From assembly GCA_965371515.1 (NCBI GenBank), contig CBDUYR010000025.1:1-36438 (forward strand): 36,438 nucleotides of DNA, written 5' to 3'. Under the pieces are notes generated by a model. It had not been told where the DNA came from and did not search any database. It saw nothing but the letters and a program-made list of their open reading frames with translations. Source of the DNA: an uncultured bacterium (lineage in GTDB: Bacteria; Krumholzibacteriota; Krumholzibacteriia; Krumholzibacteriales; Krumholzibacteriaceae). Of this stretch, positions 2,039 to 19,707 are shown one piece after another; position 1 is the first letter of the stretch; each line of letters starts with the position of its first letter. The position numbers were made by a program, and so were the translations under genes.

Positions 2039-4456
2039 ATGAAAAAACTTATAATTACGATAATTTTCGTGCATATATTGACTCTTCTGCCCGATTCAGG
2101 GTGGGGGCTGTATGACAGCTACACGGTTGTATATACTCCAAAAGGGGCATCGGTTTTAGCACAAATCCGAAATGAGATGTCCGATCAAGACATTTCAACT
2201 GCAAATGATTGGGCGACATCGGAGTATCCCGCAGCCTTGCTTCTTTGTGATGCATCCCGGACATATAATTGCCATGCCTATGCATGGCATATATCGGAGG
2301 GCGGAGATATTGTATGGATAAACGATCCGCAAGCATATTGGGCAGATGGCAGTTATGTTTCAGTAGATTCGGAAGCTTCAGCAACTAAAGTATCATACGA
2401 CGCAACATATCATTCAGCTGTAACAACTACTACTTCAGGATATCATACATCAAAATGGGGGGCATATCCCCTTATGTACCATGCAGCTCTGGATTGTCCG
2501 TACAACGATGCATCACAATTATCGTATTTCGTTAAGAGCGGGGATAATCCCGCTGCCTGCGTTGATGGCTTCTCGGTCATCGGCAGCATCGCAAGATGGA
2601 AAGTGTCGTCAGAATACAACTCAGAAAGCTATCTGGTCGAGGGAAGTGAAGGATGTAAAGGTCCATGGATCAGAGTCAGCCAGATAGACCCTCCAGGCCC
2701 GGGATGGCATACCGTGGACGTGACCTGCCAAGGGGTCACATGTTTCAGGCTTATCGAGATTGAAAATAGCGGTAAACGGATAATTCACGGTGTGGCCACG
2801 CAGCGCAGCAAGGAAATCGTCGAGAAACCGCCCCAATCGTCATTAAGTACGGTATCGGAAGATCTCATCAAGCTGAAAGAGGTGCAAAGAGAAAAGACTG
2901 GTGAACAACTTAGAAGCATCGGCGATGGAGAGACGTGCATTATATTCACACCGGATTCCCTGAGTGATGCAGTCGAGCTGTATGTTGCCGATTACTGGAA
3001 GTGGATCTGGGATTACAATGTGATTGTACATACAACTGATGGGTTCCCGAGTAGCCCCGATGAATTCAGGGATTCGTTGAAGTCAGCCATAGCGGATTAT
3101 GCCGCTGAGGGGGTGTTCTACTTTCACCTGATCGGAGATGCCAACGATTGGCGCGAATTCGACGGCGATTTGACTTCATCATTATGGGTAAACAGCTGGG
3201 AACAGATAAGGCTGAATTATTTGGCAAGCGAATATCCTGCGGGGGGTCAACCAGAGAATGATATTATTCCAACATTCGCTATTCCGGACACTCTTCCACG
3301 AGATAGAAATACAGCTTATTATGCTCCCTATATCTTCAGCGACATGCCGTTCGCAGATATTAATGACGATTCCATTCCAGATGTTGTCGTTACCCGCTGG
3401 CCGGTGAATTCAGCATCCGATGTCATGCGGCTGGCGTTGAAGATGCAGAATTACAATCGTGGTTATAATCCCGAAGACCAAATATTCAAAGTGGGGTTTT
3501 TTGTTGGGGACGTAGATCATGATGGAATAGGAGATGGTACATACGCACGAGATGTCGCATGTAACGTAGAAGCTGTATTGCCGTCAGCACAGGAAATAGT
3601 ACATCTATATGAATCAGAATGCATAATCGATGCTGATCGAAATATAGCAGCGGTTGATTTGTGGAATAATGAGCGTCCAGAGTTATTGGTAATCATCTCC
3701 AGTTATTCAAACCGCTCGTGGCCTGGTAACTTCTTCGACCAGACATTGCTCAGTGGTTCATTTCATATGGGAATGATTGAGGATGACAACGGACACACGC
3801 CCCTGATAATAGCAGGGTCATGTGGTGGAAGCGATTATGCGAGAACCGAAGATCCGGATTTTGGCACACCAATAGCTGAGAAGTTTCTATTTGCGGAAGC
3901 CAAAGGGTCCATAGCTTGGGTTGGGCCAACAGCAGGAAGTTGGCAGGAAGGCAACAGCATCATCGTTCAATATATAATTGAAGAAATATTTTCAGATCTT
4001 TCGCGCCCGATGGCGGCATCGTGGTTAGCTGCCATGCAACGCATTTGTAACGATTGCCAAAACCAACGAGATATTCTTCAAACGGCTAAAGCGTATATGT
4101 TTCTTGGTGATCCTCTTTCTAGACTCAGTCATGTATTAGACACTATTACTGACGCGAACAAGGAATCAGAGCATCTTTGTAAATTAGCGCTTGAGCAAAA
4201 TATTCCTAATCCGTTTAATCCAAGCACGAGTATTTCATTTACACTCCCCAAAGCAGATTTAGTAAGTATAAAGGTGTATGATGTAACAGGAAAGCTTGTT
4301 AAGGCATTGGTGGACAATAAACTCCCTGCAGGAAGACATGTTGTGAACTGGAAAGGCTATAACGATGCAGGCGGCACGGTCGCTTCTGGCATCTACTTTT
4401 GTAGGATGAATACATGTGAGGGCAGCAAAACTATTAAAATGGTTATTATTCGGTGA
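2039..4456 (+). CDS. Secreted multidomain protein: papain-like NCHAYAW domain + C25 (gingipain)-like domain + T9SS/FlgD-type C-terminal domain
   Basis: Signal peptide; YNCHAYAW...HSA...SKWG; C25-like FHLIGDA, SDMPFAD, VTRWP, GSCGG, YMFLGDP; C-terminal QNIPNPFNPST...YDVTGKLV...W.G...VASGIYF. Confidence 0.8.
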   Translation: MKKLIITIIFVHILTLLPDSGWGLYDSYTVVYTPKGASVLAQIRNEMSDQDISTANDWATSEYPAALLLCDASRTYNCHAYAWHISEGGDIVWINDPQAYWADGSYVSVDSEASATKVSYDATYHSAVTTTTSGYHTSKWGAYPLMYHAALDCPYNDASQLSYFVKSGDNPAACVDGFSVIGSIARWKVSSEYNSESYLVEGSEGCKGPWIRVSQIDPPGPGWHTVDVTCQGVTCFRLIEIENSGKRIIHGVATQRSKEIVEKPPQSSLSTVSEDLIKLKEVQREKTGEQLRSIGDGETCIIFTPDSLSDAVELYVADYWKWIWDYNVIVHTTDGFPSSPDEFRDSLKSAIADYAAEGVFYFHLIGDANDWREFDGDLTSSLWVNSWEQIRLNYLASEYPAGGQPENDIIPTFAIPDTLPRDRNTAYYAPYIFSDMPFADINDDSIPDVVVTRWPVNSASDVMRLALKMQNYNRGYNPEDQIFKVGFFVGDVDHDGIGDGTYARDVACNVEAVLPSAQEIVHLYESECIIDADRNIAAVDLWNNERPELLVIISSYSNRSWPGNFFDQTLLSGSFHMGMIEDDNGHTPLIIAGSCGGSDYARTEDPDFGTPIAEKFLFAEAKGSIAWVGPTAGSWQEGNSIIVQYIIEEIFSDLSRPMAASWLAAMQRICNDCQNQRDILQTAKAYMFLGDPLSRLSHVLDTITDANKESEHLCKLALEQNIPNPFNPSTSISFTLPKADLVSIKVYDVTGKLVKALVDNKLPAGRHVVNWKGYNDAGGTVASGIYFCRMNTCEGSKTIKMVIIR

Positions 4457-4499
4457 TTATATCCTTCCACAAACGCCAACCTTCAAGAGGAGCAAGAAA

Positions 4500-5789
4500 A
4501 TGACCTGGAAACGAACGGCTATCGTTCTATTGGCAATCTCACTCCTTTTATCGATAGCACATGGATGCAGCGAGGAAAAGAAGGATCAGAGGTTTCCATC
4601 AGAGATCGAAACGGCCATCAGTGACAGCGTCATGTCTCTTGTGCGAGAAGGTAAGGTAACCTCGCGCGACCAATTCGACGAACAGCGGAACAATCTCGCG
4701 AAGACCTGGATCAATGAGGTGAGGACCGACAGCCTCACAAGATCAGACAGCTTGACCTATGGGTCACTCCTGTTCAGGTCGGGGAACCTGGAAGCAGCGA
4801 AAGCGATATTGGGACACATAAGCGAGGGCAGTGACAGAAAGGCCAGGAGTGCCTATGAGAGCTTGATCACCGTGGAGATCGAGACGGGTAACGGTGAGCG
4901 TGCCGAAGAGCTCATGAAAAAATACCGAGAGCTTTATCCACCAAGCCCGGACGACGCATTTTACCTTTATGAACAAGTCGAGAATCTGGGTGGCAGGTAT
5001 AACGATATGAACCGCCTCGACGATGCGATAAGGGTATATCTGGACGAATTGTACTCGCGGCCGTTCGATACGCTATGTGTCTCGTTCAGGTTGACCGGTG
5101 ATCTCATGAATGTTTGTCAGGAAGCCGGCAGGCTCGACGTATTGAGGGAAGTTCTAGGGAGAATGAAGCAGGGCCTTATGATGGGTCTCAAGGGATATAA
5201 GGGTCAGGTTGTCTGTACGGATTCCACGGAGCGAGCTGAGGATCACATTTCTCAATCCTACGCATTGTATATAGACAACTGCGACCAAATGATGGCGATT
5301 GTTGATATGGTCGGCAAGCCGGCGCCAGAAATCGGCTTCACTTATGTCTATAATGCGGATTCGACTTCAATGCTGTCTCTGGATGATTTCAAGGGACAGG
5401 TGCTGGTGCTCGATTTCTGGAATACCTGGTGCATACCCTGCGTCATAGGATTCGAAGAGGTGAAGACCCTACTCGCTGATTATGGAGACAAGGGACTGAA
5501 GGCCGTCGGAGTCACTTCTTTTCAGGGTTATTACCGTGATATAGATACGGGTGAGATGGAAGAGGAACTCGATGAGCAGAGGGAGATCGAGATTACCGGT
5601 GAATATATCGAGAAACGGGGGATGACCTGGCCAATCGGGATTGGCGACCAATCCATATTCAAGAAGACTTACAATATATTATCGATTCCGACATTCGTGA
5701 TCATCGATAGAGAGGGTAATGTCAGGTTTGTCCATTCAGCAATCGGTCAAATGAAACAGAAGCGCAGGATTATCGAGAAGCTGTTGTGA
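4500..5789 (+). CDS. Lipoprotein with TPR-like region and C-terminal TlpA/ResA-type thiol-disulfide oxidoreductase domain
   Basis: GAGGAG SD before ATG 4500; lipobox-like AHGC; KGQVLVLDFWNTWCIPC (CxxC) and IPTFVIIDREG. Confidence 0.85.
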   Translation: MTWKRTAIVLLAISLLLSIAHGCSEEKKDQRFPSEIETAISDSVMSLVREGKVTSRDQFDEQRNNLAKTWINEVRTDSLTRSDSLTYGSLLFRSGNLEAAKAILGHISEGSDRKARSAYESLITVEIETGNGERAEELMKKYRELYPPSPDDAFYLYEQVENLGGRYNDMNRLDDAIRVYLDELYSRPFDTLCVSFRLTGDLMNVCQEAGRLDVLREVLGRMKQGLMMGLKGYKGQVVCTDSTERAEDHISQSYALYIDNCDQMMAIVDMVGKPAPEIGFTYVYNADSTSMLSLDDFKGQVLVLDFWNTWCIPCVIGFEEVKTLLADYGDKGLKAVGVTSFQGYYRDIDTGEMEEELDEQREIEITGEYIEKRGMTWPIGIGDQSIFKKTYNILSIPTFVIIDREGNVRFVHSAIGQMKQKRRIIEKLL

Positions 5790-5851: not shown

Positions 5852-6052
5852 TCAGCCGCCGTGGGCGAGGTGGAAGAGTCCGACCTTCGAGCCGTCGGGC
5901 ACGGTTTGGGTGCCGTAATCATCTTCTGGAACGAGCGTTCCCTCTATTGTCACCGTTATAAGCGCGTAATCGTAACCCATCGCGTCGAGCACATCCTGGA
6001 CGGTCATACCCTCGCGCCACTCGACCTTGTCCCTGTTGTTTACCAGTATCAT
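5852..6052 (-). CDS. thiS: Ubiquitin-like sulfur carrier protein, ThiS/MoaD family
   Basis: 66 aa beta-grasp pattern ending in GG; ATGA overlap with thiF. Confidence 0.9.
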   Translation of the reverse strand: MILVNNRDKVEWREGMTVQDVLDAMGYDYALITVTIEGTLVPEDDYGTQTVPDGSKVGLFHLAHGG

Positions 6053-6657
6053 TTCTTGTCTCCGGTGAGCAGCTCTATCGCTACGTTTGCCTGCATGCTC
6101 GCCGCCATCATCACTCGCGCTGCGCAGAGCCCCATCGTCATCTCCGATTCCTCGTCGCCGCAGACATGTATGTTACCCGACGAGTGGACCTTCATAGCTC
6201 CGGTGTTGCCGCAGCCGGAAACCCCGCTTGCCACCACGATCGGCCTGTCGGGGTAGGCGACGCACCACGACTCGATGAGCCATCTCTTGCTGTCTGCACT
6301 GTCGAACGCTTCGATAAGAAGATCGGCATCGGCATAGATTCCCGGTACGTTTTCGGGGGTGAGTTCAATGTTATGGAGAACCAGTTCGACATCGGGGTTT
6401 ATGGCTCTGAGGTGCGCGGCAAGCGTCTCGACCTTCTTCTTTCCGATATCCTGCTGGAAATAATGCTGGCGGTTGAGGTTCGATGCTTCTACGACGTCGT
6501 GGTCGGCGAGGATCAGGTGCCCGACGCCGGCGCGTACGAGCGCCACCGCCGCGTTTGAGCCGAGCCCACCGCATCCGGCGATCCCGACAGTTGCTTTCTG
6601 GAGCTTCTCCGTCGTACCTGGGACGTTCCGCTCGAATATCGGATTGCTGTCTTTCAT
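6049..6657 (-). CDS. thiF: Sulfur carrier adenylyltransferase, ThiF/MoeB family
   Basis: GIAGCGGLGS, DVVEASNLNRQ, EAFD motifs. ATG 6657 is preferred over TTG 6675. Confidence 0.9.
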   Translation of the reverse strand: MKDSNPIFERNVPGTTEKLQKATVGIAGCGGLGSNAAVALVRAGVGHLILADHDVVEASNLNRQHYFQQDIGKKKVETLAAHLRAINPDVELVLHNIELTPENVPGIYADADLLIEAFDSADSKRWLIESWCVAYPDRPIVVASGVSGCGNTGAMKVHSSGNIHVCGDEESEMTMGLCAARVMMAASMQANVAIELLTGDKK

Positions 6658-6675
6658 ACCTGGAATATACACCAA

Positions 6676-8673
6676 CTATTCCTGGTCGTCCTTTATTATC
6701 TCTACGAGTTCGGGCATATCGATGCCGAGCTCTTTTAATCTCTCGATCTTCGGGACGCCGTCGCGGGTCCAGCCCCTCTTGTCGTAAGCGGCGTCGACTA
6801 CACTGTTGTACTGATCCATGCGGAACTTACGGATCGCTTTCATCTTCTCTTCGGTCGTTTTACCCTTAGTGTCGAATCCGGCGAGCTCCGTGAGCTGTTT
6901 GTCGTATCTCTCGGCGCGCGACTCGTACTCCTCGGCTGTGACCGGCCCGACCGCCCTGTAGGGGGGCATGTCGTCCTTGCGGGTGCCGTAACCGAGCATC
7001 CTCGTCATTACGCGCTGCAGGTTGTGCACGCGGGCCGACTGGGCGAGCATCCCTTCCTCGTCGAGCGGTTCACCGGTCATTCCCTCGTAGAAGCGGAAGA
7101 AGTCCTCGACATGGTCGGGGACCTTCGCCGCTACCTGGGGCTCGTAGCTCTTGTTGCTCAGCGGGACGATGTCATTCCAGATCAGCTTGCAAAGGCCGTG
7201 AAGCCCGAACCATGTCCTCCAGAGGGGATAGTAGTAGAGGGCCATGGCCTTGTCCTCGAAAGTGGGTATCTGGTTGTTGACCATGTCCATGAAGATCAGC
7301 CATGCCTCGTCGTGCTGCGGCCCCTTGACGGCCATTGTGTAGCCGGCCTGCTGGGCGAGTGATTCCTTGCATACGTACTCGGAGTACTCGAGGCCCTTGA
7401 CCTCCATCCCGATATCCTGCAGGAAATCGGCGTCGGCGCCGAGTTCCCTTATCCATTTCTCCTTGAGGTAACGGATGCCCTGGCCGACCTCGACACCGAA
7501 GCCCTTGCCCACGGCGATCTCGTGCATGCACTCCATTACCGCGTCGGTGGCGCCGAATTTCAGCTCCTTGCCGCCCGTGTGCTCCGTCGTTATGACGCCT
7601 GCCTCGAAAGCCTCCATCACGAAGGCCATGCAGGTGCCGAAGGAGATAGTGTCGATCCCGTACGTGTCGCAGTAGAAGTTCCACTCGACGATGAAGTCGG
7701 CGTCGAAGCAGCCCATGTTGGCCCCCGCGGCAGATGTCTCGTACTCGGGACCGTCGACTACTACTCGATCGCTCTTGTACGGGCCGGTCCTGAGCTCGAA
7801 GCCGTCCACGGCCTTGGAACATGCCATCGAGCATCCCTTCCAGCAGCCATCGGGGTGGTCCTGCGTGAAGTACTTCGCCTTGAGGATCTTCGAGTCGATG
7901 TTCTTCGTGTCGGGATGCGAGCCGAACTTGTAGTTGTGGACGGGGAGCAGGTCGTAGGCGTCCATCACGTCGACTATATTCGCAGTTCCGACCTCGCGCA
8001 TCCTGCACTGGTCCTTGTCGAGGGTGGCCATCTCGGCGTTTATACGCATCCCGAAATCGCGGATCATCTGCGGATTGACCGGGTTGTTCATGTCGTCGAC
8101 GATCTCGATCGCTCCTGTCGGGCAGACATAGGCGCACGATGTGCAGTTGATACAGTGAGGATCGACCTCGCCGAAGGGCATCGTCAAGTGACGCTTGATC
8201 CCGCGGCCGGCGAAATCGAGTATCCTCTCCTTGATGAACTCGTCGCACGCGCGCACGCAGTGGGTGCAGAGGATGCAGGCCTTGGGGTTCTCGTCAGTCA
8301 GCTCGCTGCGATATTTTTCTTTATCGGTAGCACCGCATATCGCCGCGACCTCCTGGATCAGCGGAACGTTCGGCCAGCGGCCGAGGTACATCTCGGCGAG
8401 TACCCTGCGGTGGGTCTTTACTCTCTCCGACTCGGTATCCACGGCGATCTCCCCGCGTACGGGGAAGTTACACGACGTGACGAGCTTCTTCTTTCCTCTC
8501 TGCTCGACCTCGACTACGCAGAGCCTGCATGTCCCCGAGGGGGTGAGGTCCTTGTGGTGGCAGAGCGTCGGGACAGCGACTCCGTTGTCGCGGAGCGCCT
8601 GGAGGAGATACGAGCCCTTCTGGACGGTGGCCTCGATACCGTTTATCGTTATGTTGATCTTCCCGTCGGCCAT
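6676..8673 (-). CDS. Fusion: HydA/NuoG-like N-terminal Fe-S domain + aldehyde oxidoreductase (AOR/WOR) C-terminal domains
   Basis: aa 1-190: PTLCH...GTCRLC...SC [2Fe-2S], CILCTHCVRAC, CINCTSCAYVCP. Then AOR motifs: LPVHNY, CWKGCSMAC, DGPEYET, CDTYGIDTIS, GLCK, RGW...GVP...L.ELGI. Confidence 0.9.
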   Translation of the reverse strand: MADGKINITINGIEATVQKGSYLLQALRDNGVAVPTLCHHKDLTPSGTCRLCVVEVEQRGKKKLVTSCNFPVRGEIAVDTESERVKTHRRVLAEMYLGRWPNVPLIQEVAAICGATDKEKYRSELTDENPKACILCTHCVRACDEFIKERILDFAGRGIKRHLTMPFGEVDPHCINCTSCAYVCPTGAIEIVDDMNNPVNPQMIRDFGMRINAEMATLDKDQCRMREVGTANIVDVMDAYDLLPVHNYKFGSHPDTKNIDSKILKAKYFTQDHPDGCWKGCSMACSKAVDGFELRTGPYKSDRVVVDGPEYETSAAGANMGCFDADFIVEWNFYCDTYGIDTISFGTCMAFVMEAFEAGVITTEHTGGKELKFGATDAVMECMHEIAVGKGFGVEVGQGIRYLKEKWIRELGADADFLQDIGMEVKGLEYSEYVCKESLAQQAGYTMAVKGPQHDEAWLIFMDMVNNQIPTFEDKAMALYYYPLWRTWFGLHGLCKLIWNDIVPLSNKSYEPQVAAKVPDHVEDFFRFYEGMTGEPLDEEGMLAQSARVHNLQRVMTRMLGYGTRKDDMPPYRAVGPVTAEEYESRAERYDKQLTELAGFDTKGKTTEEKMKAIRKFRMDQYNSVVDAAYDKRGWTRDGVPKIERLKELGIDMPELVEIIKDDQE

Positions 8674-11600
8674 TTATATCACCTCCACAGCGTCGAAATT
8701 GCAGACTTCGTAACAGATACCGCACTTGATGCATTTCCCGGGATCGATCACGTGGATCTCTTTTTTCTCCCCGGTAATTGCGTCAACGGGGCAGTTCTTG
8801 AAGCAGAGCGTGCATCCCGTGCAGTTGTCCGCGCTGATTGTGTACTCGATCAGCGCCTTGCACACCCCGGCGCGGCATTCCTTTTTCTTTATGTGTTCCT
8901 CGTATTCCTCGCGGAAGTAGTTGATAGTGCTCATCACCGGATTGGGCGCCGAACCTCCAAGCTGGCAGAGGCTCGTGTCCTGCACTGTAGCGCAGAGTTC
9001 CTCGAGCCGCTCGATGTCTCCGGCCCGGCCCTCTCCCTTGCAGAGACGATTCAGGATGTTGCTCATCAGGTGGAGCCCCTCGCGGCAGGCGGTGCACTTC
9101 CCGCACGACTCGTCCATGAGGAAGTCGATGAAGTAGCGTGCGACGTCGACCATGCATGTGTGATCGTCCATGACGATCATTCCGCCCGATCCCATCATCG
9201 AGCCGGCCTCAGTGAGTGAGTCGAAGTCGACCTTCATGTCGAGCTTCGCAGCCGGCAGGCATCCGCCCGACGGCCCGCCGGTCTGGACGGCCTTGAACTC
9301 CCGTCCTTCGGGGATGCCGCCGCCGACCTCCTCGATGATCTCTCGGAGCGTTATACCCATCGGGACCTCCACGAGACCGGTGTTGCGGACGTCGCCGACG
9401 AGTGAGAATACCTTCGTGCCCGAAGAGCCGTTCCACGGATTCTCGCTTACGTCGCCTGTGCCGATAGATGCGAACCACTTCGCGCCCTTCGATATGATCT
9501 CGGGGATGTTCGCCCAGGTCTCGACGTTGTTGAGCACGGTCGGCTTGTCGCGGAACCCATACTCGACACTGTGCACGTACTTCGCGCGCGGTTCGCCGGG
9601 CTTTCCGGCCATCGAGGCCATCAGTGCGCTCGATTCTCCGCAGACGAACGCGCCCGCGCCGCGGTGCACGTGAATGTCGAATGAGAACCCGCTGCCGAGG
9701 ATGTCGTCGCCGAGCAGTCCGTACTCGCGGGCCTGGTCGATCGCCTTGGCCAGCCTCGTCTGCGCGAGCGGGTATTCCTTTCTGATGTATATGTAGCCCT
9801 CGCTGGAACCGACGGCGCGAGCGCCGATGATCATTCCCTCGATCACCGAATGGGGGTCGGTCTCGATGATCGAGCGGTCCATGAAGGCGCCGGGGTCGCC
9901 CTCGTCGGCGTTGCAGACTACGAAGATCTCCTCCTCGCGCTCCTGCGCGGCCTTCCAGCCTGATCTCCATTTCACGCCGGCGGGGAAACCTCCGCCTCCG
10001 CGCCCGCGGAGACCAGAGGCAATCACCTCGTCGATGATATCTTCCTGTTTCATTCCGCCGAGGACCTTGCGGAGCGCGTCATATCCGCCGCGCGCGATAT
10101 AGTGGTCTATGTTCTCCGGGTCGATGATTCCCTTGTTGCGCAGCGCGATGAGCTGCTGCTTGCTGAAGAAGGGGATGTCGCCCATCTTCTCGTTGATCTC
10201 ACCCGAGACCGGGTTTTTATAGAGGAGGCGTTCTATCGTCTCGCCGCTATCGAGTGAGGCGACGATCTCGTCGAGGTCCTTCTCCTTTACCTTCTGGTAG
10301 AATATTCCATCGGGTTGGACGACGATAATCGGGCCTGAGGCGCAGAAGCCGTTGCAACCGGTCGCGACCACGGCGTATTCGGAAGAGACTCCCTTCTCCG
10401 AGAGAGCCTTCACTAGCCCGTCGCGGATGTCGAAGCCCTTGGCCGCAACGCAGCCCGTGCCGGTGCATACCATCAGCATCTTCTTGAAACCGGCATCTTT
10501 TTCTTTCTGTGCGGATGCGATCTTCTCGAGATCGGCCGGAGCGATCTTCGCAGCGCCGTCCTTCGCGATCTCCGCAGCAGCCTCTTTTTTCTTCGCACCG
10601 CCGCTCTTCGCCTGCTTCAGGAGCTTCTCGACGTCCTTCGACTGGACGTTGCCAAATACCTCCTCGCCGATCTTCACTACCGGCGCTATCGAGCAGGCGC
10701 CGAGGCAGGCGACTGCCTCGAGCGAGTATCTGTTGTCGTCTGTAGTCCCTCCGGTGTCGACTCCGAGAACCCTCTCGAACGAGTCGAGGATCTTTGCTGA
10801 GCCCTTGACGTGGCAGGCGGTCCCCACGCAGACCTGAATGACCGTCTCGCCCTTTGGCTCGAGGGAGAAGGTCTTATAGAAGGTCGCGATGTGGTAGAGA
10901 TGTGACTTCGGCTTGCCCGTCTTGCGGTTGATCTCGTCGATCGCAGTCCTGGAGATGTGGCGGAAACGATCCTGGATGTCCTGCATCATCTCGATGACAT
11001 ATTCGGGATCACAGTTCCACCTCTCTATGATCTCGTGGAGTTCCACGATCTCGCCCTTGCACTGGATCGAGATCTTCTTCGGGGTGATCATCTTCGCGAC
11101 CTTGTTCTCCTCGATCTTCCACGCGGGAGTGACCTGGTTGTTTTTTATGACCACTGCCTTGATCTTCTTGTCGCGGAAGACGGTGCCGATTCCGCCGCGC
11201 CCGGCCTGCTTGAGCCGCGCCGCACCACGCCGCCAGTCCCAGAAGGAGAAATTGAGGATGCCCATCCTCGTATGCTCCGCGCCGCGTCCGGCCGATACGC
11301 ACGCGATGTTCCGGAGGTCGAGTTCGTCGTCGGCGTACATCTCGGCTAGCTCTTCGGCGATGAGGTGCGAGTCGACGCTCTCCAGGGGTGCCTTCTCGAT
11401 AGTCACATTTCCCGCGACTGCGTCGATCAGGACTATAACGTCCTCATCTGCCTTGCCGATTACCATCATCGCGTCGAAACCGGAGAACTTGAGGTACGGC
11501 CCGAAGAATCCACCGACGTTGCAGTCCATGATCGAACTGGTCAAAGGGGATATCGCCGTGGCGATCGTCTTGCCCGAGCCGGGGAAGGAGACTGTGCCGC

Positions 11601-11880
11601 CGAGAGGGCCGGATGAGAAACAGATCGGATTATTCGGGCTGTTCCACTTCGTGTCTTTGTCGATCTCCCCGAACGTCATCCAGAGATCGAAGCCTTTCCC
11701 GCCGGTCCAGAGTCTCTTCATCTCGTCATCTATGGGGTGGATCGAGATCTCTCCAGTACCAACGTCGATTCGCAGCCAGCGGTTCGCGTAGCCCTTGTCC
11801 AGGGGCACGACCTCGAAGTCGAAACGGGTGACGACTTCGCGCGCCCCCTTCATTTCAGCGATACGATCATGTGAAGACAT
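8674..11880 (-). CDS. Fusion: AOR/WOR N-terminal domain + HydC/NuoE + thioredoxin-like [2Fe-2S] + HydB/NuoF + 2x[4Fe-4S]
   Basis: aa 1-245 AOR_N (GPLGG, SPLT, GGFFGPYLKFSGFD, GRGGIGTVFRDKKIKAV); NuoE (ATFY, CVGTACHVKG, CLGAC); CTGTGC...GCNGFC; NuoF (GRGGGGFP, CNADEGDPG, CGKCTACREG); two CxxCxxCxxxC motifs. GGAGG SD. Confidence 0.92.
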   Translation of the reverse strand: MSSHDRIAEMKGAREVVTRFDFEVVPLDKGYANRWLRIDVGTGEISIHPIDDEMKRLWTGGKGFDLWMTFGEIDKDTKWNSPNNPICFSSGPLGGTVSFPGSGKTIATAISPLTSSIMDCNVGGFFGPYLKFSGFDAMMVIGKADEDVIVLIDAVAGNVTIEKAPLESVDSHLIAEELAEMYADDELDLRNIACVSAGRGAEHTRMGILNFSFWDWRRGAARLKQAGRGGIGTVFRDKKIKAVVIKNNQVTPAWKIEENKVAKMITPKKISIQCKGEIVELHEIIERWNCDPEYVIEMMQDIQDRFRHISRTAIDEINRKTGKPKSHLYHIATFYKTFSLEPKGETVIQVCVGTACHVKGSAKILDSFERVLGVDTGGTTDDNRYSLEAVACLGACSIAPVVKIGEEVFGNVQSKDVEKLLKQAKSGGAKKKEAAAEIAKDGAAKIAPADLEKIASAQKEKDAGFKKMLMVCTGTGCVAAKGFDIRDGLVKALSEKGVSSEYAVVATGCNGFCASGPIIVVQPDGIFYQKVKEKDLDEIVASLDSGETIERLLYKNPVSGEINEKMGDIPFFSKQQLIALRNKGIIDPENIDHYIARGGYDALRKVLGGMKQEDIIDEVIASGLRGRGGGGFPAGVKWRSGWKAAQEREEEIFVVCNADEGDPGAFMDRSIIETDPHSVIEGMIIGARAVGSSEGYIYIRKEYPLAQTRLAKAIDQAREYGLLGDDILGSGFSFDIHVHRGAGAFVCGESSALMASMAGKPGEPRAKYVHSVEYGFRDKPTVLNNVETWANIPEIISKGAKWFASIGTGDVSENPWNGSSGTKVFSLVGDVRNTGLVEVPMGITLREIIEEVGGGIPEGREFKAVQTGGPSGGCLPAAKLDMKVDFDSLTEAGSMMGSGGMIVMDDHTCMVDVARYFIDFLMDESCGKCTACREGLHLMSNILNRLCKGEGRAGDIERLEELCATVQDTSLCQLGGSAPNPVMSTINYFREEYEEHIKKKECRAGVCKALIEYTISADNCTGCTLCFKNCPVDAITGEKKEIHVIDPGKCIKCGICYEVCNFDAVEVI

Positions 11881-11994
11881 TCCGTGAGGCCTCCTTCGTT
11901 TTATCGATTGCAGAGATAGTAAGGGGTAAGAATATACACACTTTGGATTCAGATATGAAGCATAAATTATTTTATGAAAGGATATTACGGCAAC

Positions 11995-12018
11995 CGATAT
12001 GCATCGCCGTACATATCC
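11995..12018. promoter_or_regulatory. Candidate ModE-family operator
   Basis: CGATATGC-N8-ACATATCC, with inverted GATATG/CATATC, resembles the ModE-type CGnTATR-N-YATAnCG box and abuts the wtpA -35. Confidence 0.6.
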
Positions 12019-12019
12019 A

Positions 12020-12047
12020 TTGACAACCCGTTGTTATTTGATATTTT
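12020..12047 (+). promoter_or_regulatory. Candidate sigma70 promoter of the wtp/mod/moa operon
   Basis: TTGACA (12020-25), 16 bp, then TATTTT (12042-47) preceded by TGn. Confidence 0.6.
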
Positions 12048-12089
12048 GCAGTATCAGGAGGGAATTTTATTACCTGGAGGAACGATTGG

Positions 12090-13076
12090 ATGAGGGTTCG
12101 TGTACTGACATTACTGGTGGCAGCTGTGATCCTTTCCGGCTCGCTTTTCATGCTGTCACGCGGTGGTGAGGAAAAGCCGGAGAAAAGTGCCGGGCAGAAA
12201 CTGATCGTATTTCACGCGGGCAGCCTGTCGGTGCCGTTCAGGAAGATCTCCAGGATGTTCATGAGGGATCATCCCAACGTTACCATCCTGCTCGAAGCGG
12301 CGGGAAGCAGGTCATGCGCGAGGAAGATCTCCGACCTCGGCAGGGAATGCGACGTGATGGCGTCTGCAGACTACACGGTGATCGACGCGCTCCTCATCCC
12401 GGACCATGCATCCTGGAACATCAAGTTTGCCAGCAACGAGATGGCGATTGTATACACGGAAGATTCGAAGCGGCACGGGGAGATCGACGCGGGGAACTGG
12501 CACGAGGTGCTTCTCGACCCGGACGTCGCCTTCGGGCGTTCCGATCCCGACACAGATCCGTGCGGATACAGGGCCGTCCTGACGATGAAGCTCGCGGAGA
12601 AATATTACAGCGAAAGCGGCCTGGCCGGTCGCCTGCTCGAGAAAGACAACCGTTTCATCAGGCCGAAGGAGACCGATCTTCTCGCCCTGCTCGAGACGGG
12701 CACGATAGATTACATCTTTCTCTACCGCTCGGTGGCTCAGCAACACGGGCTCGAGTTCCTTGTCCTGCCCGACGAGATTAATCTCAAGAATCCCGGATTC
12801 ACAGATATGTACGGAGCTGTAGGTGTCGAGATCTCGGGGAAGAAGCCCGGAGAAAAGATGGTGAAGCGCGGCGCTCCTATGGTCTACGGGATCACGATCC
12901 CCTCGAACTCGCCGAGCGCGGAGCTCGCGCAGCATTTCATAGATTTTATCCTCGATGCTGACCTAGGGATGAAGGTGATGGAGGAGGCCGGGCAGCCTTC
13001 CATGGTTCCATCATCCTCGGAGACTTACGAGGCGATCCCTGCCGCATTGAAAAAATACGCGAAGCCGGCTTTATAG
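12090..13076 (+). CDS. wtpA: Tungstate ABC transporter substrate-binding protein
   Basis: FHAGSL, EAAGS, SADY, DPCGYR, RPKETDL and YRSVA motifs of the WtpA family; GGAGG SD. Confidence 0.9.
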   Translation: MRVRVLTLLVAAVILSGSLFMLSRGGEEKPEKSAGQKLIVFHAGSLSVPFRKISRMFMRDHPNVTILLEAAGSRSCARKISDLGRECDVMASADYTVIDALLIPDHASWNIKFASNEMAIVYTEDSKRHGEIDAGNWHEVLLDPDVAFGRSDPDTDPCGYRAVLTMKLAEKYYSESGLAGRLLEKDNRFIRPKETDLLALLETGTIDYIFLYRSVAQQHGLEFLVLPDEINLKNPGFTDMYGAVGVEISGKKPGEKMVKRGAPMVYGITIPSNSPSAELAQHFIDFILDADLGMKVMEEAGQPSMVPSSSETYEAIPAALKKYAKPAL

Positions 13077-13106
13077 AGCCGGGGTGTCTACAGTGAAGGA
13101 ACGGTA

Positions 13107-13901
13107 TTGAGTATCTCCCGTATCGAACCGATGCATCTCGTCTTCGCGGCGCTCGGAGGAGTATTGCTCCTCTTCATAGTCGCGCCGCTGGCGGGGATGT
13201 TTCTCAACGTCGGCAAGGAGGAACTGTCCGAGGCAGCCGCCGATCCGGAGGTGACTTCGAGCATCTGGCTGACACTGGGCGCCTCGATGACGGCCACACT
13301 CATCGTCTCGCTGTCTGCCGTTCCCTTCGCCTGGATCCTGGCGAGAAAGGAATTCCCGTTCAAGAGACTGGTCAACGGCATTGTCGATCTTCCGATAGTC
13401 ATACCGCATTCGGCGGCGGGGATAGCCCTGCTCGGAGTGCTCGCGCCGGGAACCCCGGTCGGTTCGCTCGGTGAGAGACTCGGGATTTCCTTCATCGGCG
13501 GAGTCGCGGGAATAATGGCCGCGATGGCTTTTGTCTCCGTTCCCTTCCTCGTCAACGCCGCCAGGGATGGATTCGCCGCCGTGCCTGTACGGCTCGAGCA
13601 GGCCGCGCTCAACCTGGGCGCGTCTCCGCTGAGGGTGTTTCTCACCGTCTCGATGCCGATGGCGTGGAGGTCGATCATCTCCGGCCTCGTTCTGATGTGG
13701 GCGAGGGGTATGAGCGAGTTCGGCGCTGTGCTGATCATCGCCTACCACCCGATGATCACTCCCGTACTGATCTACGAGCGCTTTGGCGCTTTCGGACTGA
13801 AATACGCGAGGCCGGTGACGGTCCTCTTCGTCGCCGTTTGTCTCGTCTTCTTCATAGCGCTGAGGATGATAGCAGGGAGGCGGAGCAATGCCGAAGTGTG
13901 A
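13107..13901 (+). CDS. wtpB: Tungstate ABC transporter permease
   Basis: DLPIVIPHSAAGIAL, LEQAALNLGAS (EAA loop), WARGMSEFGA. Start is uncertain (TTG 13107 or ATG 13131). Confidence 0.9.
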   Translation: MSISRIEPMHLVFAALGGVLLLFIVAPLAGMFLNVGKEELSEAAADPEVTSSIWLTLGASMTATLIVSLSAVPFAWILARKEFPFKRLVNGIVDLPIVIPHSAAGIALLGVLAPGTPVGSLGERLGISFIGGVAGIMAAMAFVSVPFLVNAARDGFAAVPVRLEQAALNLGASPLRVFLTVSMPMAWRSIISGLVLMWARGMSEFGAVLIIAYHPMITPVLIYERFGAFGLKYARPVTVLFVAVCLVFFIALRMIAGRRSNAEV

Positions 13902-14982
13902 GAAGATCAGATGTGCCGCCATGCTGGAGGTCGATGGGCTTGCGAAGAGACTCGGGGAGTTTTCGATCTCGGATGTCTCGTTTACTATCGACGAAGGGGA
14001 ATACTTCGTTCTTCTCGGCGCTTCGGGCACGGGGAAGACGGTCCTCCTGGAGACGTTGACAGGCGTTATCCAGCCCGATTCGGGGCGTGTTGTTCTTGCC
14101 GGGCGCGACATCACCCGCGAGAGGATGCAGCGCAGGAAACTCGGGATGGTCTTCCAGGACCAGGCACTCTTTCCCCACATGTCGGTGAGAAGGAACATCG
14201 CCTACGGGCCGGCCTCCTCGGGGATGAAACGCTTCGATATCGAGAAACTCGTCGAATCGCTCGCGTTCGAGACGGGCATCGGCCATCTGCTCGACCGCAG
14301 CCCGGCGACACTTTCCGGCGGCGAGGCGCAGAGGTCCGCACTCGCGCGCGCCCTGGCCGTGGATCCCGACTGCCTTCTGCTCGACGAGCCGTTGTCTTCG
14401 CTCGATTCGGGGGCGAGGATCGAGATTCGCATGCTCCTCAAAAAGCTCAACCGCGGCGGGATGACGATGCTCCACGTTACGCACGATTATGAAGAAGCGG
14501 TGGCCCTGGCCACGAAGATCGGCATCATGGAGAACGGAACGGTGGTTCAGGTAGACACGCCGCAGCGTATTCTCACCCACCCCGGTTCAGAGTTTGTCGC
14601 GAGGTTCGTCGGGATCAGGAATGTGTACAGAGGCCGGCTTCGAAGGGAATCGGACGGAACGGCCGTATTCGAGTCAGATGCTGATGTCCCGTTCCGACTC
14701 GAGACATTGTGCGAGGCCAGTGAGGGCGAGGCGACCGCCATAGTGAGGAGCGAGGACGTTACACTGTCGGCATATCGTCCCGACACGAGTGCGAGAAATC
14801 TGTTCGAAGGAACGGTCAGCGAGATAGTTCCCGCAAGAAGGGGAGCTGAGGTTACCATCGACGCCGGTGCGGCGATAGTCGCGATGGTTACCGAGCGGTC
14901 GGTGGAATCTCTCGGCCTCGAGAGGGGGAGCAGGGTCTTCGCCTCTATCAAGGCGAGCGCTGTGAAGATAATCGAAGGATGA
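13888..14982 (+). CDS. wtpC: Tungstate ABC transporter ATPase with C-terminal TOBE domain
   Basis: GASGTGKT, LSGGE, LLLDEP, HVTH; C-terminal SARN...IKAS TOBE. Alternative start 13921. Confidence 0.9.
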   Translation: MPKCEKIRCAAMLEVDGLAKRLGEFSISDVSFTIDEGEYFVLLGASGTGKTVLLETLTGVIQPDSGRVVLAGRDITRERMQRRKLGMVFQDQALFPHMSVRRNIAYGPASSGMKRFDIEKLVESLAFETGIGHLLDRSPATLSGGEAQRSALARALAVDPDCLLLDEPLSSLDSGARIEIRMLLKKLNRGGMTMLHVTHDYEEAVALATKIGIMENGTVVQVDTPQRILTHPGSEFVARFVGIRNVYRGRLRRESDGTAVFESDADVPFRLETLCEASEGEATAIVRSEDVTLSAYRPDTSARNLFEGTVSEIVPARRGAEVTIDAGAAIVAMVTERSVESLGLERGSRVFASIKASAVKIIEG

Positions 14983-14986: not shown

Positions 14987-15370
14987 ATGAAGAAGAAATC
15001 AGGTGCGGTGAATCCTGGGATCAGGCTCTATCTCTACGACGGTGGGAGCGAGGGGCTGTTCGGCGACGGCAAATGGCGCCTGCTCAAGTCGGTAGATGAA
15101 GAAGGATCGATCAGAAAAGCGGCCGAAAAACTGGGCAGAGGATACCGTAAGGCCTGGGGCGACATCAAGAGGACCGAGAGCGCCCTCGGCCGTAAAATTG
15201 TCAGAAAGACGAGGGGAGGGCCGACAGGCGGTGCGACCGAGCTCACCGAGTTCGGCAGGGAACTGCTCAAAGGATGGCAGAAGTACAGGGAGGCCGTCAT
15301 GAAGGGGATGGACGGAGCGTTCGAGCTATATCTCTCCGGCCTTCTCGAAAGGAGCGAAGATGAACACTGA
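14987..15370 (+). CDS. modE: ModE-family winged-helix regulator (DNA-binding domain only)
   Basis: FGDGKWRLL...GSIRKAA..LG.GYRKAW...RGGPTGGATELTEFG; no TOBE domain. Confidence 0.85.
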   Translation: MKKKSGAVNPGIRLYLYDGGSEGLFGDGKWRLLKSVDEEGSIRKAAEKLGRGYRKAWGDIKRTESALGRKIVRKTRGGPTGGATELTEFGRELLKGWQKYREAVMKGMDGAFELYLSGLLERSEDEH

Positions 15371-15548
15371 AGAGTTCGGAAAGATCATAGAAGAATCGTC
15401 GATCGAACAGGACGGCAGGAAGAGTCTGCCCTGCGCGAAGGCCTTCGAGTTGTCCGAAAGATACAGTATTCCGCTGAAGGATATCGGCGCTTACTGCAGC
15501 GACAACGGGATCAGGATAAGTATGTGCCAGCTCGGCTGCTTCGAGTGA
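15360..15548 (+). CDS. Small Cys-containing protein (LPC..AF...CQLGCF type)
   Basis: 62 aa, four Cys, AGGAG SD, overlaps the modE stop. Confidence 0.8.
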   Translation: MNTEEFGKIIEESSIEQDGRKSLPCAKAFELSERYSIPLKDIGAYCSDNGIRISMCQLGCFE

Positions 15549-15560
15549 GACTGACAGCGG

Positions 15561-16001
15561 ATGAAGACTATCGTCATATCGGGAGCGAGATCGAACATCG
15601 GCAAGACGACGCTGGCGGAGAAGATCCGCCAGTTGCTTCCCGGAAGTGTGCGCATAAAGCTCGGGCATGGGGAACTGAAAGAAGATATGGATGATGTTTT
15701 CTATGATGCAGGGACCCCATATGAGCGGATAAAAGAGGAAAATCCGCAAGCGGATTTTCTGATTATAGAGAGCAACAGGATACTGGAGGAGATCGAGCCC
15801 GACCTGGCGATCTATCTGCCCGCCGACGAGCCGAAGCCCTCCGCGGCGCTTGCAGAGGCGAAAGCCGATCTGATCAGGGGATGTGAGGGTGGATCCGACG
15901 CGGCGGAGCATGTTGCCGGGAAACTCGGGATAGATGAACGGGCCGCCGCAGAGATCGTAAGACTGGTATGCATGACCGGCGAGACGGAAGATGGATCATG
16001 A
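15561..16001 (+). CDS. Small P-loop NTPase, MobB-like
   Basis: IVISGARSNIGKTT Walker A and LIIESN; located in a pterin cofactor operon. Confidence 0.7.
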   Translation: MKTIVISGARSNIGKTTLAEKIRQLLPGSVRIKLGHGELKEDMDDVFYDAGTPYERIKEENPQADFLIIESNRILEEIEPDLAIYLPADEPKPSAALAEAKADLIRGCEGGSDAAEHVAGKLGIDERAAAEIVRLVCMTGETEDGS

Positions 16002-17242
16002 AAAAGAGTAATGGGAAAAAGGATTTCGGCCGCAGGAAACTAATGCCGTTCGACGATGTGATGGACATAATACTGGGTTCGGCGCGCCTGCTTGGCAGTG
16101 AAGAGGTGGACCTCACCGATGCGGCGGGCAGAGTGCTCGTCTCCGATATCGTCTCCGACATCGACATGCCGCCGTTCGACAAGTCGGCTATGGACGGCTT
16201 CGCCTGCAGGAGAGCTGATCTCGATCGCCCGTTGAGGATCGTCGAGACGGTTGCGGCAGGCCGGATTCCGGAAAAGAAGATCGGCGAGGGCGAATGCGCG
16301 AGGATCATGACTGGTGCGGCTGTGCCCGGTGGGGCGGACACAGTCGTCATGGTCGAGGACACCGGGGAAAAAGACGGTATCGTCACGGTGGTACGCCGCA
16401 GTGGCAGCAGTAACATATGCCTTCTCGGCGAGGATCTTCGCGAGGGGGATACGGTCCTGAAAAAGGGATCTCTGATCCGTTCTTCGGAGATTGCAGTCCT
16501 CGCAGCGACGGGCAGCGCGAAGGCGCCGGTCGCGGTCAGGCCCACTCTCGGGGTCGCTGTCACAGGCGACGAGCTTGCCGAACCGGGCCAGCCGCTGAAC
16601 GCGGGGATGATACGGAACTCTAACGGACCGCAGTTGATGGCGCAGGCGGCTGAAACCGGTCTGCCGGCGAAGTATCTCGGCATCGTACCCGACGATCCCG
16701 GCGCCGTTCCGGAGTTGATCGAACGCACCTCTGGAGAGATAGACGTATACATATTTTCCGGCGGTGTATCGATGGGCGACTATGATTTTGTTCCCGGAGG
16801 ACTGGAGGAGGCAGGATTCGAGCTGCTTGTGCATGGAGCGGCGATAAAGCCGGGTCGCCCCCTTCTCTTCGGCAGGCGCGATGACGCCTGGGTGTTCGGG
16901 CTTCCGGGAAATCCCGTTTCGGTGTTTGTTCTCTTCGAGATGATCGTCAAACCGTTCTGTTTCCGATTGATGGGTCACGATTACAGGCCGCTGGAAGTCG
17001 CGGCGCGTCTCGAGAGGGATTTCACGAGAAAGGATGCTGTACGGACTGCGCATGTGCCGGTACGGCTGACGCCCGACGGATGGGTCCGATTCATCGAGTA
17101 TCACGGTTCGGCACACATCCATGCCTACACACGGGCGGACGGGATACTTCGCATACCTGCGGGCGTCGAGTCACTGAAGAAGGGCGAGGAGGTCAGGATC
17201 GTCGTTCCTGGACCGCCGCGTCTCACGGATGGAATGAGATAG
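15998..17242 (+). CDS. moeA: Molybdopterin Mo/W insertase
   Basis: PPFDKSAMDGFA, RIMTGA, TGDEL, SGGVSMGDYD, IKPGRP, GLPGNPVS; ATGA coupling at 15998. Confidence 0.95.
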   Translation: MKKSNGKKDFGRRKLMPFDDVMDIILGSARLLGSEEVDLTDAAGRVLVSDIVSDIDMPPFDKSAMDGFACRRADLDRPLRIVETVAAGRIPEKKIGEGECARIMTGAAVPGGADTVVMVEDTGEKDGIVTVVRRSGSSNICLLGEDLREGDTVLKKGSLIRSSEIAVLAATGSAKAPVAVRPTLGVAVTGDELAEPGQPLNAGMIRNSNGPQLMAQAAETGLPAKYLGIVPDDPGAVPELIERTSGEIDVYIFSGGVSMGDYDFVPGGLEEAGFELLVHGAAIKPGRPLLFGRRDDAWVFGLPGNPVSVFVLFEMIVKPFCFRLMGHDYRPLEVAARLERDFTRKDAVRTAHVPVRLTPDGWVRFIEYHGSAHIHAYTRADGILRIPAGVESLKKGEEVRIVVPGPPRLTDGMR

Positions 17243-17244
17243 TG

Positions 17245-18062: not shown

Positions 18063-18425
18063 TTACCACATCTTCTCGAAATCTTTTCTGTCCGTTTTTT
18101 TCTCCAGGTCAACGAAGTATGAATCATAATCCTTCGAGAGCATCAAGGGATCCTTCCGGAAAATCTTCGAGAGCATGGAAAGGGGGAACAGAATCAGGTA
18201 GAACACCATGCTCAACAGGATATTGGGGACGATGTATCCGAGCAGTTTCCCCAGTTTCATCCATGCCCACTCGATCTTTCTGCTCAGAAACGGCGATACT
18301 ATTCCGATGATTCCAGCTGTGAGAGACACGATGACGGCCCATTGCCAGGCTTTGATCAGGTAGAGTACCAGGAAGCCCATCGATATTATCAGCATCGTCG
18401 ATTTCGAAGTATCTATTTTCCTCAT
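18063..18425 (-). CDS. SxtJ-family membrane protein
   Basis: Hydrophobic N-half, WMKLG..LG.I...ILL..VFY....P, KDPL.L; follows DUF5989 and a carbamoyltransferase. Confidence 0.85.
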   Translation of the reverse strand: MRKIDTSKSTMLIISMGFLVLYLIKAWQWAVIVSLTAGIIGIVSPFLSRKIEWAWMKLGKLLGYIVPNILLSMVFYLILFPLSMLSKIFRKDPLMLSKDYDSYFVDLEKKTDRKDFEKMW

Positions 18426-18439
18426 AAGAACCTGTTTCC

Positions 18440-18589
18440 CTAGAACAGTGTATAGATGAAAGGCGCTATCGCGCTGCCCGCTCCGAAGACGATCAGCAGA
18501 CCCAGAAGCAGCAGTATAACTATGATAGGCGCCAGCCAGAACTTCTTGCGTTCCTTAATGAATAGCCAGAGGTCTTTCAGTATCTCCAA
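18440..18589 (-). CDS. DUF5989/SxtK-like small membrane protein (49 aa, not in ORF track)
   Basis: AGGAG SD and TTG start: MEILKDLWLFIKERKKFWLAPIIVILLLLGLLIVFGAGSAIAPFIYTLF*. Confidence 0.9.
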   Translation of the reverse strand: MEILKDLWLFIKERKKFWLAPIIVILLLLGLLIVFGAGSAIAPFIYTLF

Positions 18590-18608
18590 GGTATCTCCTG
18601 CCCATTCA

Positions 18609-19691: not shown

Positions 19692-19707
19692 TTCATAATC
19701 GTAAGGC

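Follow-up and report, generated by a model that had tools for sequence, protein, structure and literature searches.

Complementary halves of a putative tungsten-type aldehyde oxidoreductase, fused to a predicted electron-bifurcating module in two adjacent bacterial genes

An uncultured bacterium of the Krumholzibacteriota carries, on contig CBDUYR010000025.1, two adjacent genes that probably specify an obligate two-chain enzyme: a tungsten-type aldehyde oxidoreductase (AOR) built together with a BfuABC electron-transfer module, which would oxidize aldehydes and is predicted to reduce NAD+ and ferredoxin in a coupled reaction. The window considered here is the 36,438-nucleotide stretch of that contig, and all coordinates count from its first letter. 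Judged from the sequence, the domain order, the complementarity of the two AOR halves, the presence of every cofactor ligand tested and the lack of any other AOR half in the genome are firm; bifurcation, together with metal and substrate, is the part that we infer. An initial annotation of the same DNA had read the AOR halves and the Bfu genes as a single enzyme, and the evidence laid out below supports that reading.

Two fused genes divide one oxidoreductase

The two open reading frames lie on the minus strand and abut without a gap: gene 1 (11880-8674; 1068 residues, P0001) and gene 2 (8673-6676; 665 residues, P0002), a pair of 1733 residues in total. Gene 1 encodes, in Pfam order, AFOR_N (34-247), a thioredoxin-like [2Fe-2S] domain of NuoE type (282-424), a second thioredoxin-like [2Fe-2S] domain, Complex1_51K (621-793), which holds the flavin mononucleotide (FMN)/NADH site, NADH_4Fe-4S (912-996, the B1 region) and Fer4 with two [4Fe-4S] clusters (1015-1066). 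Gene 2 follows with Fer2_4 (5-82), Fer4_7 with two further [4Fe-4S] clusters (133-188) and AFOR_C (211-651). The AOR/Bfu fusions are in frame and free of stops in both genes. This order agrees with the initial annotation, which had described gene 1 as an AOR N-domain followed by NuoE/HydC, NuoF/HydB and 2x[4Fe-4S], and gene 2 as HydA/NuoG-N followed by the AOR C-domains; the only refinement is that the BfuA part of gene 2 lacks the His-ligated A3 cluster. The same annotation had placed a hydC-hydB-hydA(N) block inside an aor gene, in frame after the strand KKIKAVVIK, and the N half does end near residue 248 of gene 1, with the C half resuming from about residue 196 of gene 2.

The layout is a genuine gene architecture and not an assembly chimera, as three lines of evidence indicate. 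First, each junction is bridged by single contigs of other runs, which answers a doubt that the annotation had raised. Junction 1 (~11137-11050) is spanned in runs X2 and X3 with 0 differences and in X17 and X19 with 24 and 11 differences, and junction 2 (~8090) in X3 with 0 differences and also in X5, X16, X17, X18 and X19; the possible source shares its study with X2 and X3, and X17 and X19 come from two other studies. Second, among relatives (the best 80 of 598 from a scan of 12 of the 64 parts of a genome collection), 32 loci are likewise split, 47 encode an undivided AOR in a single chain, and the contig ends within 1. Third, the two halves described here account for the sole AFOR_N and the sole AFOR_C in the genome, which is 99.6% complete. 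A chimeric assembly, or a gene left dead by the insertion of an operon, is thus highly improbable. In its favor, all 32 split loci come from metagenome-assembled genomes (MAGs), and the entire split operon of one relative (L091, G139:C6:62000-68477) is full of frameshifts and stops, either sequencing errors or a pseudogene; against it stand the bridged junctions in other runs and studies, conservation of the layout under roughly a dozen phylum labels, with identities as low as ~51%, invariant catalytic residues and a conserved new motif that is described below.

Complementary halves of a probable tungsten site

The AOR-type part is shared out with almost no loss. Domain 1 occupies residues 1-248 of gene 1 (11137-11880, minus strand; AFOR_N, E 8.6e-46, aligning with 1AOR 6-210), and domains 2-3 occupy residues 196-665 of gene 2 (6676-8088, minus strand; AFOR_C, E 5e-85, with alignments to 1AOR and 8C0Z). 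Alignment with 44 intact relatives shows no overlap between the halves and a loss of only ~5-7 linker residues: the N half stops at 248, after the last strand of AOR domain 1, and the C half starts at 196-198 of P0002. The closest solved structure for either half is 1AOR (E 3e-25 and 3e-21), and fold matches to the AOR part of gene 2 comprise 1b25, 9g7j, 9mqx_D and 1aor. Neither chain contains both the N domain (IPR013983) and the C domain (IPR001203), which the inclusion rule for WorL demands in one polypeptide (PMC13328260); only the pair does.

Residues expected around the metal are retained on both sides. In domain 1, S111-P112, N121 and R228-G229 are kept in 27 of 27 aligned split rows and in 44 of 44 intact rows. 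By alignment to 1AOR, T243, E311-Y312-E313, D338, D343, Y427 and H448 of PfAOR correspond to T230, E310-Y311-E312, D336, D341, Y433 and H454 of gene 2. The AOR [4Fe-4S] cluster likewise finds its ligands, with C277/281/285 for PfAOR C288/291/295 and C495 as the fourth by alignment to 8C0Z; the spacing of the first two cysteines is one residue off that of PfAOR, as it is in the intact relatives. These mapped tungsten-site and [4Fe-4S] residues of gene 2 are kept in 27/27 split rows. In PfAOR, the residues at the positions of G490 and C495 of gene 2 are D489 and C494. Four second-shell residues, Thr243, Glu313, Tyr427 and His448 in PfAOR numbering, are all present (T230, E312, Y433, H454); they are named for aldehyde-oxidizing tungsten-containing oxidoreductases (WORs) in PMC13328260 and PMC12096430 (here and below, statements about cited articles apply to the portion of each that was accessible). 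The halves also share a history, since trees of the N and C halves have in common a 23-row clade (SH-aLRT, an approximate likelihood-ratio support, 99 and 100) and seven supported sister pairs. Two grounds for doubt raised in the annotation, that the halves might stem from different WOR clades or might fail to reconstitute a pterin site, thereby lose their force: the trees are congruent within one AOR clade and tungsten-site residues survive in both halves.

Structure prediction is consistent with this picture. A complex of P0001 1-260 with P0002 125-665 scored 0.94 in three runs, the best control scoring 0.00; the score mark is one that 116 of 157 solved pairs and 2 of 215 mismatched pairs pass. 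Contacts agreed by at least 90%, the partner reached a per-residue confidence (pLDDT) of 90, and two positions of the Fe-S module, 176 and 178, are listed where the chain meets AOR domain 1. Such a model speaks for compatibility of the halves and not for binding, because halves of split genes can pass through their likeness to solved AORs.

Features outside the AOR fold suggest that the divided state has itself been under selection. Behind domain 1 lies a new tail or linker (residues 249-280; 11041-11136, minus strand) marked by a split-specific P-x-W motif, of which P252 and W254 are invariant in 60 homologues. The motif occurs in 120 of the 120 gene-1 homologues listed and at 27 of 28 split loci, including those in which the N half has a gene to itself, and Trp appears in the corresponding window of 0 of 47 intact AORs. 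Because this region is disordered in the single-chain model (pLDDT <50 at 251-259), P-x-W would likely bind something in the assembled complex. At the other end of gene 1, BfuB closes with a GTGGAGGT tail in 26 of 28 cases, an ATG stands at or just past the stop in 26 of 28, and the last codons contain a GGAGGT Shine-Dalgarno-like motif for gene 2. The tail and adjacent start codon suggest translational coupling of the two genes, and together with P-x-W they hint at selection on the split state.

A complete core of predicted electron-bifurcating type

Between the AOR halves sits a full set of Bfu domains. BfuC (HydC/NuoE; residues 281-425 of gene 1, 10606-11040, minus strand) is identified by Pfam, by family profiles and by the C1 [2Fe-2S] ligands C351, C356, C392 and C396. 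An Ala/Lys-rich BfuC-BfuB linker (426-465; 10486-10605, minus strand), the least conserved block, is predicted to be flexible (pLDDT <50 at 427-442). BfuB/HydB is complete (466-1068; 8674-10485, minus strand), with B5 (C472/477/509/513), the FMN/NADH site, the SLBB motif GGPSG (868-872), B1 (C926/929/932/972), the B2 site (C909, H996, C1002, C1007) and B3/B4 (8 Cys, 1020-1060). Its closest match in the PDB is 7q4v_B (E ~1e-220), then 9mqx_B (E ~1e-216), with NuoF only at ~1e-100; we take the first to be HydB of A. woodii and the second WorB of Acetomicrobium mobile. According to PMC9304861, the invariant core of bifurcating Bfu enzymes consists of B1-B5, the FMN site and C1, and all of these ligands are present in gene 1. 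Among the beta-subunit markers of bifurcating enzymes given in PMC7311640 (Ala/Glu232, Met234, Phe367 and GGPSG), A665, M667 and GGPSG are found, the Thermotoga maritima numbering being transferred by offset.

The BfuA/WorA-type N-terminal module opens gene 2 (residues 1-195; 8089-8673, minus strand), and its cysteines provide for A1 [2Fe-2S] and two [4Fe-4S] clusters, A2 and A4; C143/174/177/180 are presumably the A4 ligands, by homology to HydA and complex I. The closest PDB chain is 9mqx_A (WorA; E 5e-35 over residues 5-195). Residues 68-133 contain no A3 motif, as in WorA of A. mobile, and the stretch after residue 184 has no cysteine set for an A5 cluster or zinc finger ahead of the AOR part. 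Indeed, the BfuA part stops where the zinc finger of WorA would begin and runs directly into AOR domain 2. Among the Bfu types, Type 1 is defined by a BfuA that itself bears the catalytic domain; here BfuA bears AOR domains 2-3, with domain 1 on the BfuC-BfuB chain. As in Type 2, BfuA lacks A3 and A5, but the separate subunits that feed BfuA in Type 2 are replaced by fused catalytic halves.

How the pair may work

With its full set of Bfu cluster ligands and its three markers of bifurcation, the pair likely works like WorABCSL of A. mobile, only without WorS. In that enzyme electrons pass from W to L2, through the WorS clusters, and on to A4, A2, A1 and BfuBC (PMC12318220). Here, the bis-pterin site would form between domain 1 of chain 1 and domains 2-3 of chain 2. 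Electrons would leave W for the AOR [4Fe-4S] cluster (C277/281/285/495; L2) and pass to A4, A2 and A1, all on chain 2; direct transfer from L2 to A4 is proposed because the L2-bearing domain is covalently placed right behind the A2/A4 domain. From A1 they would cross to B1, FMN, B5 and C1 on chain 1, with hydride going to NAD+ and low-potential electrons reaching ferredoxin through B3/B4. In essence, the AOR domains would take the place of the H-cluster in HydA, as in a Type 1-like Bfu enzyme, so that the WorS nanowire would not be needed and one W site would serve each Bfu core. The flexible BfuC-BfuB linker would permit the movement of the C1 domain proposed in the Bfu literature.

Several observations weigh against this reading, and two rival explanations draw on them. 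One rival holds that the reaction differs: NADH and reduced ferredoxin might together reduce carboxylic acids, or the substrate might not be an aldehyde, as in class II benzoyl-CoA reductase, or the metal might be Mo and not W. The AOR part is distant from all solved WORs (19-24% identity), and its clade has no close solved member; two positions depart from PfAOR, Trp458 for Tyr452 and Gly490 for Asp489, both changes being common to the intact relatives; and some WORs show no aldehyde activity (PMC13328260). We nonetheless regard a different reaction or metal as unlikely, given that all four second-shell residues typical of aldehyde-oxidizing WORs are kept and, for the metal, that a WtpA-type transporter adjoins, even if WtpA lies beside only 4 of the 32 split loci.

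The other rival keeps the two-chain aldehyde oxidoreductase and denies it bifurcation: NAD+ alone or ferredoxin alone would accept the electrons, as in NAD-linked Class III WORs or non-bifurcating Hyd homologues. The module does decay in relatives. Among the 120 gene-1 homologues listed, the full set of domains and the three motifs survive in 80, and B5 is missing from 25, some of which have lost B3/B4 or the FMN domain too. As the AOR halves are kept while the module decays in many relatives, NADH coupling is not essential to the architecture. Furthermore, aldehyde oxidation has no thermodynamic need of bifurcation (PMC12318220), and even WOR1 has been shown only to distribute electrons to ferredoxin and NAD+, with no endergonic step (PMC12096430). 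Further difficulties are that alignment did not map the position of the T. maritima F367 marker, for which both candidates, 745 and 803, are Phe, and that the A2/A4 domain is modeled poorly (pLDDT <50 at 135-195). In this copy, however, B1-B5 and C1 are retained together with the A/M and GGPSG markers, features missing from non-bifurcating enzymes (PMC9304861), and the gap between its BfuB matches to bifurcating subunits (E ~1e-220) and to NuoF (~1e-100) tells in the same direction; a non-bifurcating enzyme is accordingly a rather unlikely account. A two-chain enzyme coupling aldehyde oxidation to NAD+ and ferredoxin remains the probable one.

Relationship to known enzymes

The initial annotation spoke of WOR-linked bifurcating enzymes as proposed and knew of no characterized one with this interleaved layout. 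The first point has been overtaken, as WorABCSL of A. mobile has been purified and solved (PMC12318220, PDB 9MQX); the second appears to hold. Like WorABCSL and ElWOR1 of Eubacterium limosum, the pair combines a WOR fold with a BfuBC core of B1-B5 and C1 and with a BfuA that lacks A3 (PMC12318220, PMC13328260). WorABCSL is nevertheless assembled from five separate subunits as ABC(SL)3; its WorL is intact and belongs to clade 87, its WorS forms a nanowire, and its WorA has a zinc finger and an adaptor helix, whereas here there are two chains, WorL is cut at its domain 1/2 linker with the halves fused to BfuC and BfuA, WorS and the zinc finger are missing, and the AOR part is ~19% identical to 9mqx_D. 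The domain sets of WorA, WorB and WorC that characterize Class IV WORs occur as fused domains; the five subunits, among them a WorS with four [4Fe-4S] clusters, do not, there being two chains (PMC13328260). Lacking WorS and an intact WorL, the pair is not a Class IV WOR as that article defines the class.

Other families offer partial parallels. Type 1 Bfu enzymes (FeFe-HydABC, Nfn-Bfu/StnABC, Fdh-Bfu; PMC9304861) also have a catalytic domain on the C-terminus of BfuA, predicted to feed A4, but here BfuA carries no more than two-thirds of the catalytic unit, the rest being on BfuC, and the loss of A3/A5 resembles Type 2; the text of PMC9304861 that was covered contains no Type 1 Wor enzyme. The BamB-I form of class II benzoyl-CoA reductase pairs an AOR-family tungsten enzyme with BamIHG, which is homologous to WorABC (PMC13328260); it differs in its eight subunits, intact BamB, Hdr-like modules and ring-reduction reaction. 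Nearest of all are intact AOR/WorL proteins of the same clade, ~720-775 residues long (for example in Desulforadius tongensis, L061, and in many Bacteroidota, Chloroflexota and Thermoplasmata MAGs), which are 49-60% identical over domains 2-3 and share both the active-site residues and the clade-specific substitutions. They differ in being single chains with a short linker, often with a gene for a 127-170-residue ferredoxin-like protein ahead and with no bfu genes in the flanks examined.

It is therefore the architecture alone, apparently undescribed and widespread, that is new, the chemistry being known from WorABCSL. No description was found in the literature searched, which lay mostly outside subscription papers, and a prior mention is possible. 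The words "split" and "fusion" are absent from the main text of PMC13328260, and "split," "fused" and "fusion" from that of PMC9304861, whose readable supplement text likewise has neither "split" nor "fused"; the accessible parts of PMC12096430 and PMC11406978 contain nothing on this layout. For a WOR clade number, six MAG names were looked up in three supplements of PMC13328260 and had no match there. The survey in that last article took only proteins with both WOR domains in one sequence, which excludes these halves by design, and databases name the chains NADH oxidoreductase subunit E/F or (2Fe-2S)-binding protein. As a result, the tungsten-type enzyme of many uncultured anaerobes has gone uncounted, including that of the 27 of 151 searched host-phylum genomes that carry the BfuA-AOR-C fusion.

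The mechanism of Bfu-type bifurcation is still unsettled, and the sole solved tungsten example is a nine-chain nanowire complex (PMC12318220). At 1733 residues, two genes and a predicted one W per core, the present enzyme would offer experimenters the simplest Wor-Bfu for expression and analysis. Its relatives constitute a natural cluster-deletion series, without B5, the NADH loop, B3/B4 or the FMN domain, from which the clusters needed for bifurcation might be deduced. The locus also appears to illustrate clearly how an operon can insert into the gene of a cofactor-binding enzyme, apparently without loss of function.

Origin and possible movement of the cassette

Phylogeny places the split form among intact enzymes. 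A careful AOR tree, rooted on distant AORs, drew 16 rows from the 27 split sequences and 23 from the 44 intact ones and added 9 further representatives, 48 rows in all. Within it, 15 split rows form one clade (90/91) nested among intact AORs, which makes the split state derived. In a tree of BfuB and BfuA, the 32 split loci stand apart from 17 other Bfu modules (100/99), the outgroups coming from one phylum only, and a single origin of the cassette is what these sequences indicate. As an origin, a bfuC-bfuB-bfuA(N) block would have inserted into an undivided aor gene, at the linker between domains 1 and 2; a later fusion of C to B would have yielded the present two-gene form, and other lineages would have split further or lost the NADH site.

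The history of the AOR halves is less uniform. In one Thermoplasmatales MAG (L029), the cassette is sister to those of Fermentibacterota (100/99) and both AOR halves group with intact Thermoplasmata AORs (100); a second Thermoplasmatales MAG (L027) has the same pattern. A single clade for all 27 split AORs is rejected by the approximately unbiased (AU) test (p-AU 2e-84). In Thermoplasmata, then, either an aor gene already present received the cassette at this very linker, or intact genes arose by loss of the cassette, as far as the sequences indicate. Transfer is favored by the careful tree, in which L029 and its undivided relatives join other intact AORs (94/95), and by the intact-type linker of the Thermoplasmata genes, with its conserved Gly. 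An AU test leaves room for loss, as it does not reject a tree in which this group joins the split clade (p 0.80). In that comparison the constrained tree lies 25 log-likelihood units above the quick free tree, so that the quick trees fall short of the optimum at deep nodes. Between concatenated positions 261 and 400, sliding identity brings L029 closer to the Fermentibacterota-type split genes (0.64-0.81 versus 0.54-0.74). A donor-derived recombination patch following the cassette was not confirmed: the AU test does not reject a grouping of this segment with intact Thermoplasmata AORs (p 0.77).

On a tentative reading, which we hold to be somewhat less probable than not, the cassette is portable and, on entering the domain 1/2 linker, would convert a plain ferredoxin-linked AOR into an NADH-coupled, minimal two-chain bifurcating tungstoenzyme whose W site forms only in trans. 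One cassette lineage occurs in two unrelated AOR backbones, bacterial and Thermoplasmata archaeal, so that it was either moved into an aor gene already present or cleanly excised, which would have regenerated intact enzymes.

Distribution and variants

Among the names in the record titles of split loci are Krumholzibacteriota (the nearest, at 95%), Melioribacteraceae, Aminicenantes, Fibrobacteraceae, Eisenbacteria, Bacillota, Synergistia, Cloacimonadota, Sumerlaeota, Bdellovibrionales, Aegiribacteria/Sabulitectum (Fermentibacterota) and Thermoplasmatales archaea. Both fusions recur throughout the matches listed: AOR-N runs into the start of BfuC in 120 of 120 homologues of P0001 residues 1-430, and Fer2_4 is joined to AFOR_C in all 120 matches to P0002 residues 1-420 (its own record included). 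The host-phylum genomes searched contained no intact AOR of this clade at E <= 1e-30.

The arrangement varies among the 32 split loci. Eight have the two-gene form found here, nine have three genes (AOR-N-C, B and A-AOR-C), four have four genes with a free AOR-N, six have a decayed two-gene form and five are cut by contig ends. Decay proceeds in steps that leave the AOR halves intact (L002, L018, L035, L004, L020, L028, L092; P0077, P0104, P0115, P0121): B5 and the NADH loop are gone from chains of ~900 residues, B3/B4 and half of BfuC as well from those of ~780, or else the whole FMN domain from those of ~690. Genes are abutting or nearly so at most loci, and one locus (L026, 7003-7992) has ~1 kb between bfuB and bfuA-aorC. 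Candidate single-chain fusions of both genes, a 1785-residue frame in G073 and an 871-residue frame in G084, proved to be alternative-frame read-throughs overlapping a normal gene 1. Contigs of relatives span the locus in four RNA-labeled runs; contigs cannot show transcription, and they were not used as evidence.

Two divergent proteins were also encountered. P0247 is a BfuA-AOR-C fusion of 43% identity that keeps its Fe-S cysteines and has apparently lost the Glu-Tyr-Glu and His second-shell residues; it is possibly a non-catalytic paralogue. P0248 has FG-GAP repeats ahead of an AFOR_C of this clade, in place of AFOR_N or the Fe-S module, and may be a misassembly.

Gene neighborhood

Genes on both sides would suit a tungstopterin enzyme. 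Immediately downstream on the minus strand are a ThiF-family adenylyltransferase (6049-6675; NF006395 above cut-off), likely concerned with cofactor sulfur supply, and a 66-residue ThiS/WorX-like sulfur carrier ending in GG (5852-6052; TIGR01683 above cut-off), with homologues at 23 and 25 of the 32 split loci, respectively. Upstream, in divergent orientation on the plus strand, lies a transporter of the WtpABC tungstate ABC type (12090-14982). Its WtpA scores 306 bits against a cut-off of 243 for TIGR03730 and falls slightly below that of NF003196 (351 against 355 bits); WtpB and WtpC are the best families for the other components, at sub-cut-off scores. Next come genes for a ModE-type regulator domain and for MoeA and MoaA-like pterin synthesis (14987-18057, plus strand), the best families being ModE_repress, MoeA and moaA, all below equivalog or subfamily cut-offs.

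The window has no separate ferredoxin-type gene between thiS and wtpA; small ferredoxin-like open reading frames of the genome are candidate electron partners. The genome also has a second bfuCBA set (G000:C38 ~8800-14900, L116), whose 1227-residue A subunit carries FAD and molybdopterin-type domains and resembles the Nfn/Stn enzymes of Sporomusa type. The divergent intergenic region (11881-12089) is nearly identical to that of one relative, L001, over ~170 bases and includes an AT-rich imperfect inverted repeat near 11960-11976. An alignment of this region, with three sequences only, established no regulatory site, and Rfam at gathering thresholds gave 0 matches in the window, hence no known riboswitch.

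Elsewhere in the window, open reading frames of 474 and 818 residues (25359-26783 and 29214-31670) have no Pfam match and lie near two DUF4136 genes and a rubrerythrin gene. SxtJ-family, GDSL/SGNH and carbamoyltransferase genes (18063-21907) have a GC content of 0.46-0.49 against ~0.58. Low GC also characterizes 2039-5789, where a Peptidase C25 gene with an FlgD/secretion C-terminal domain is followed by a gene for a TPR-redoxin lipoprotein-like product.

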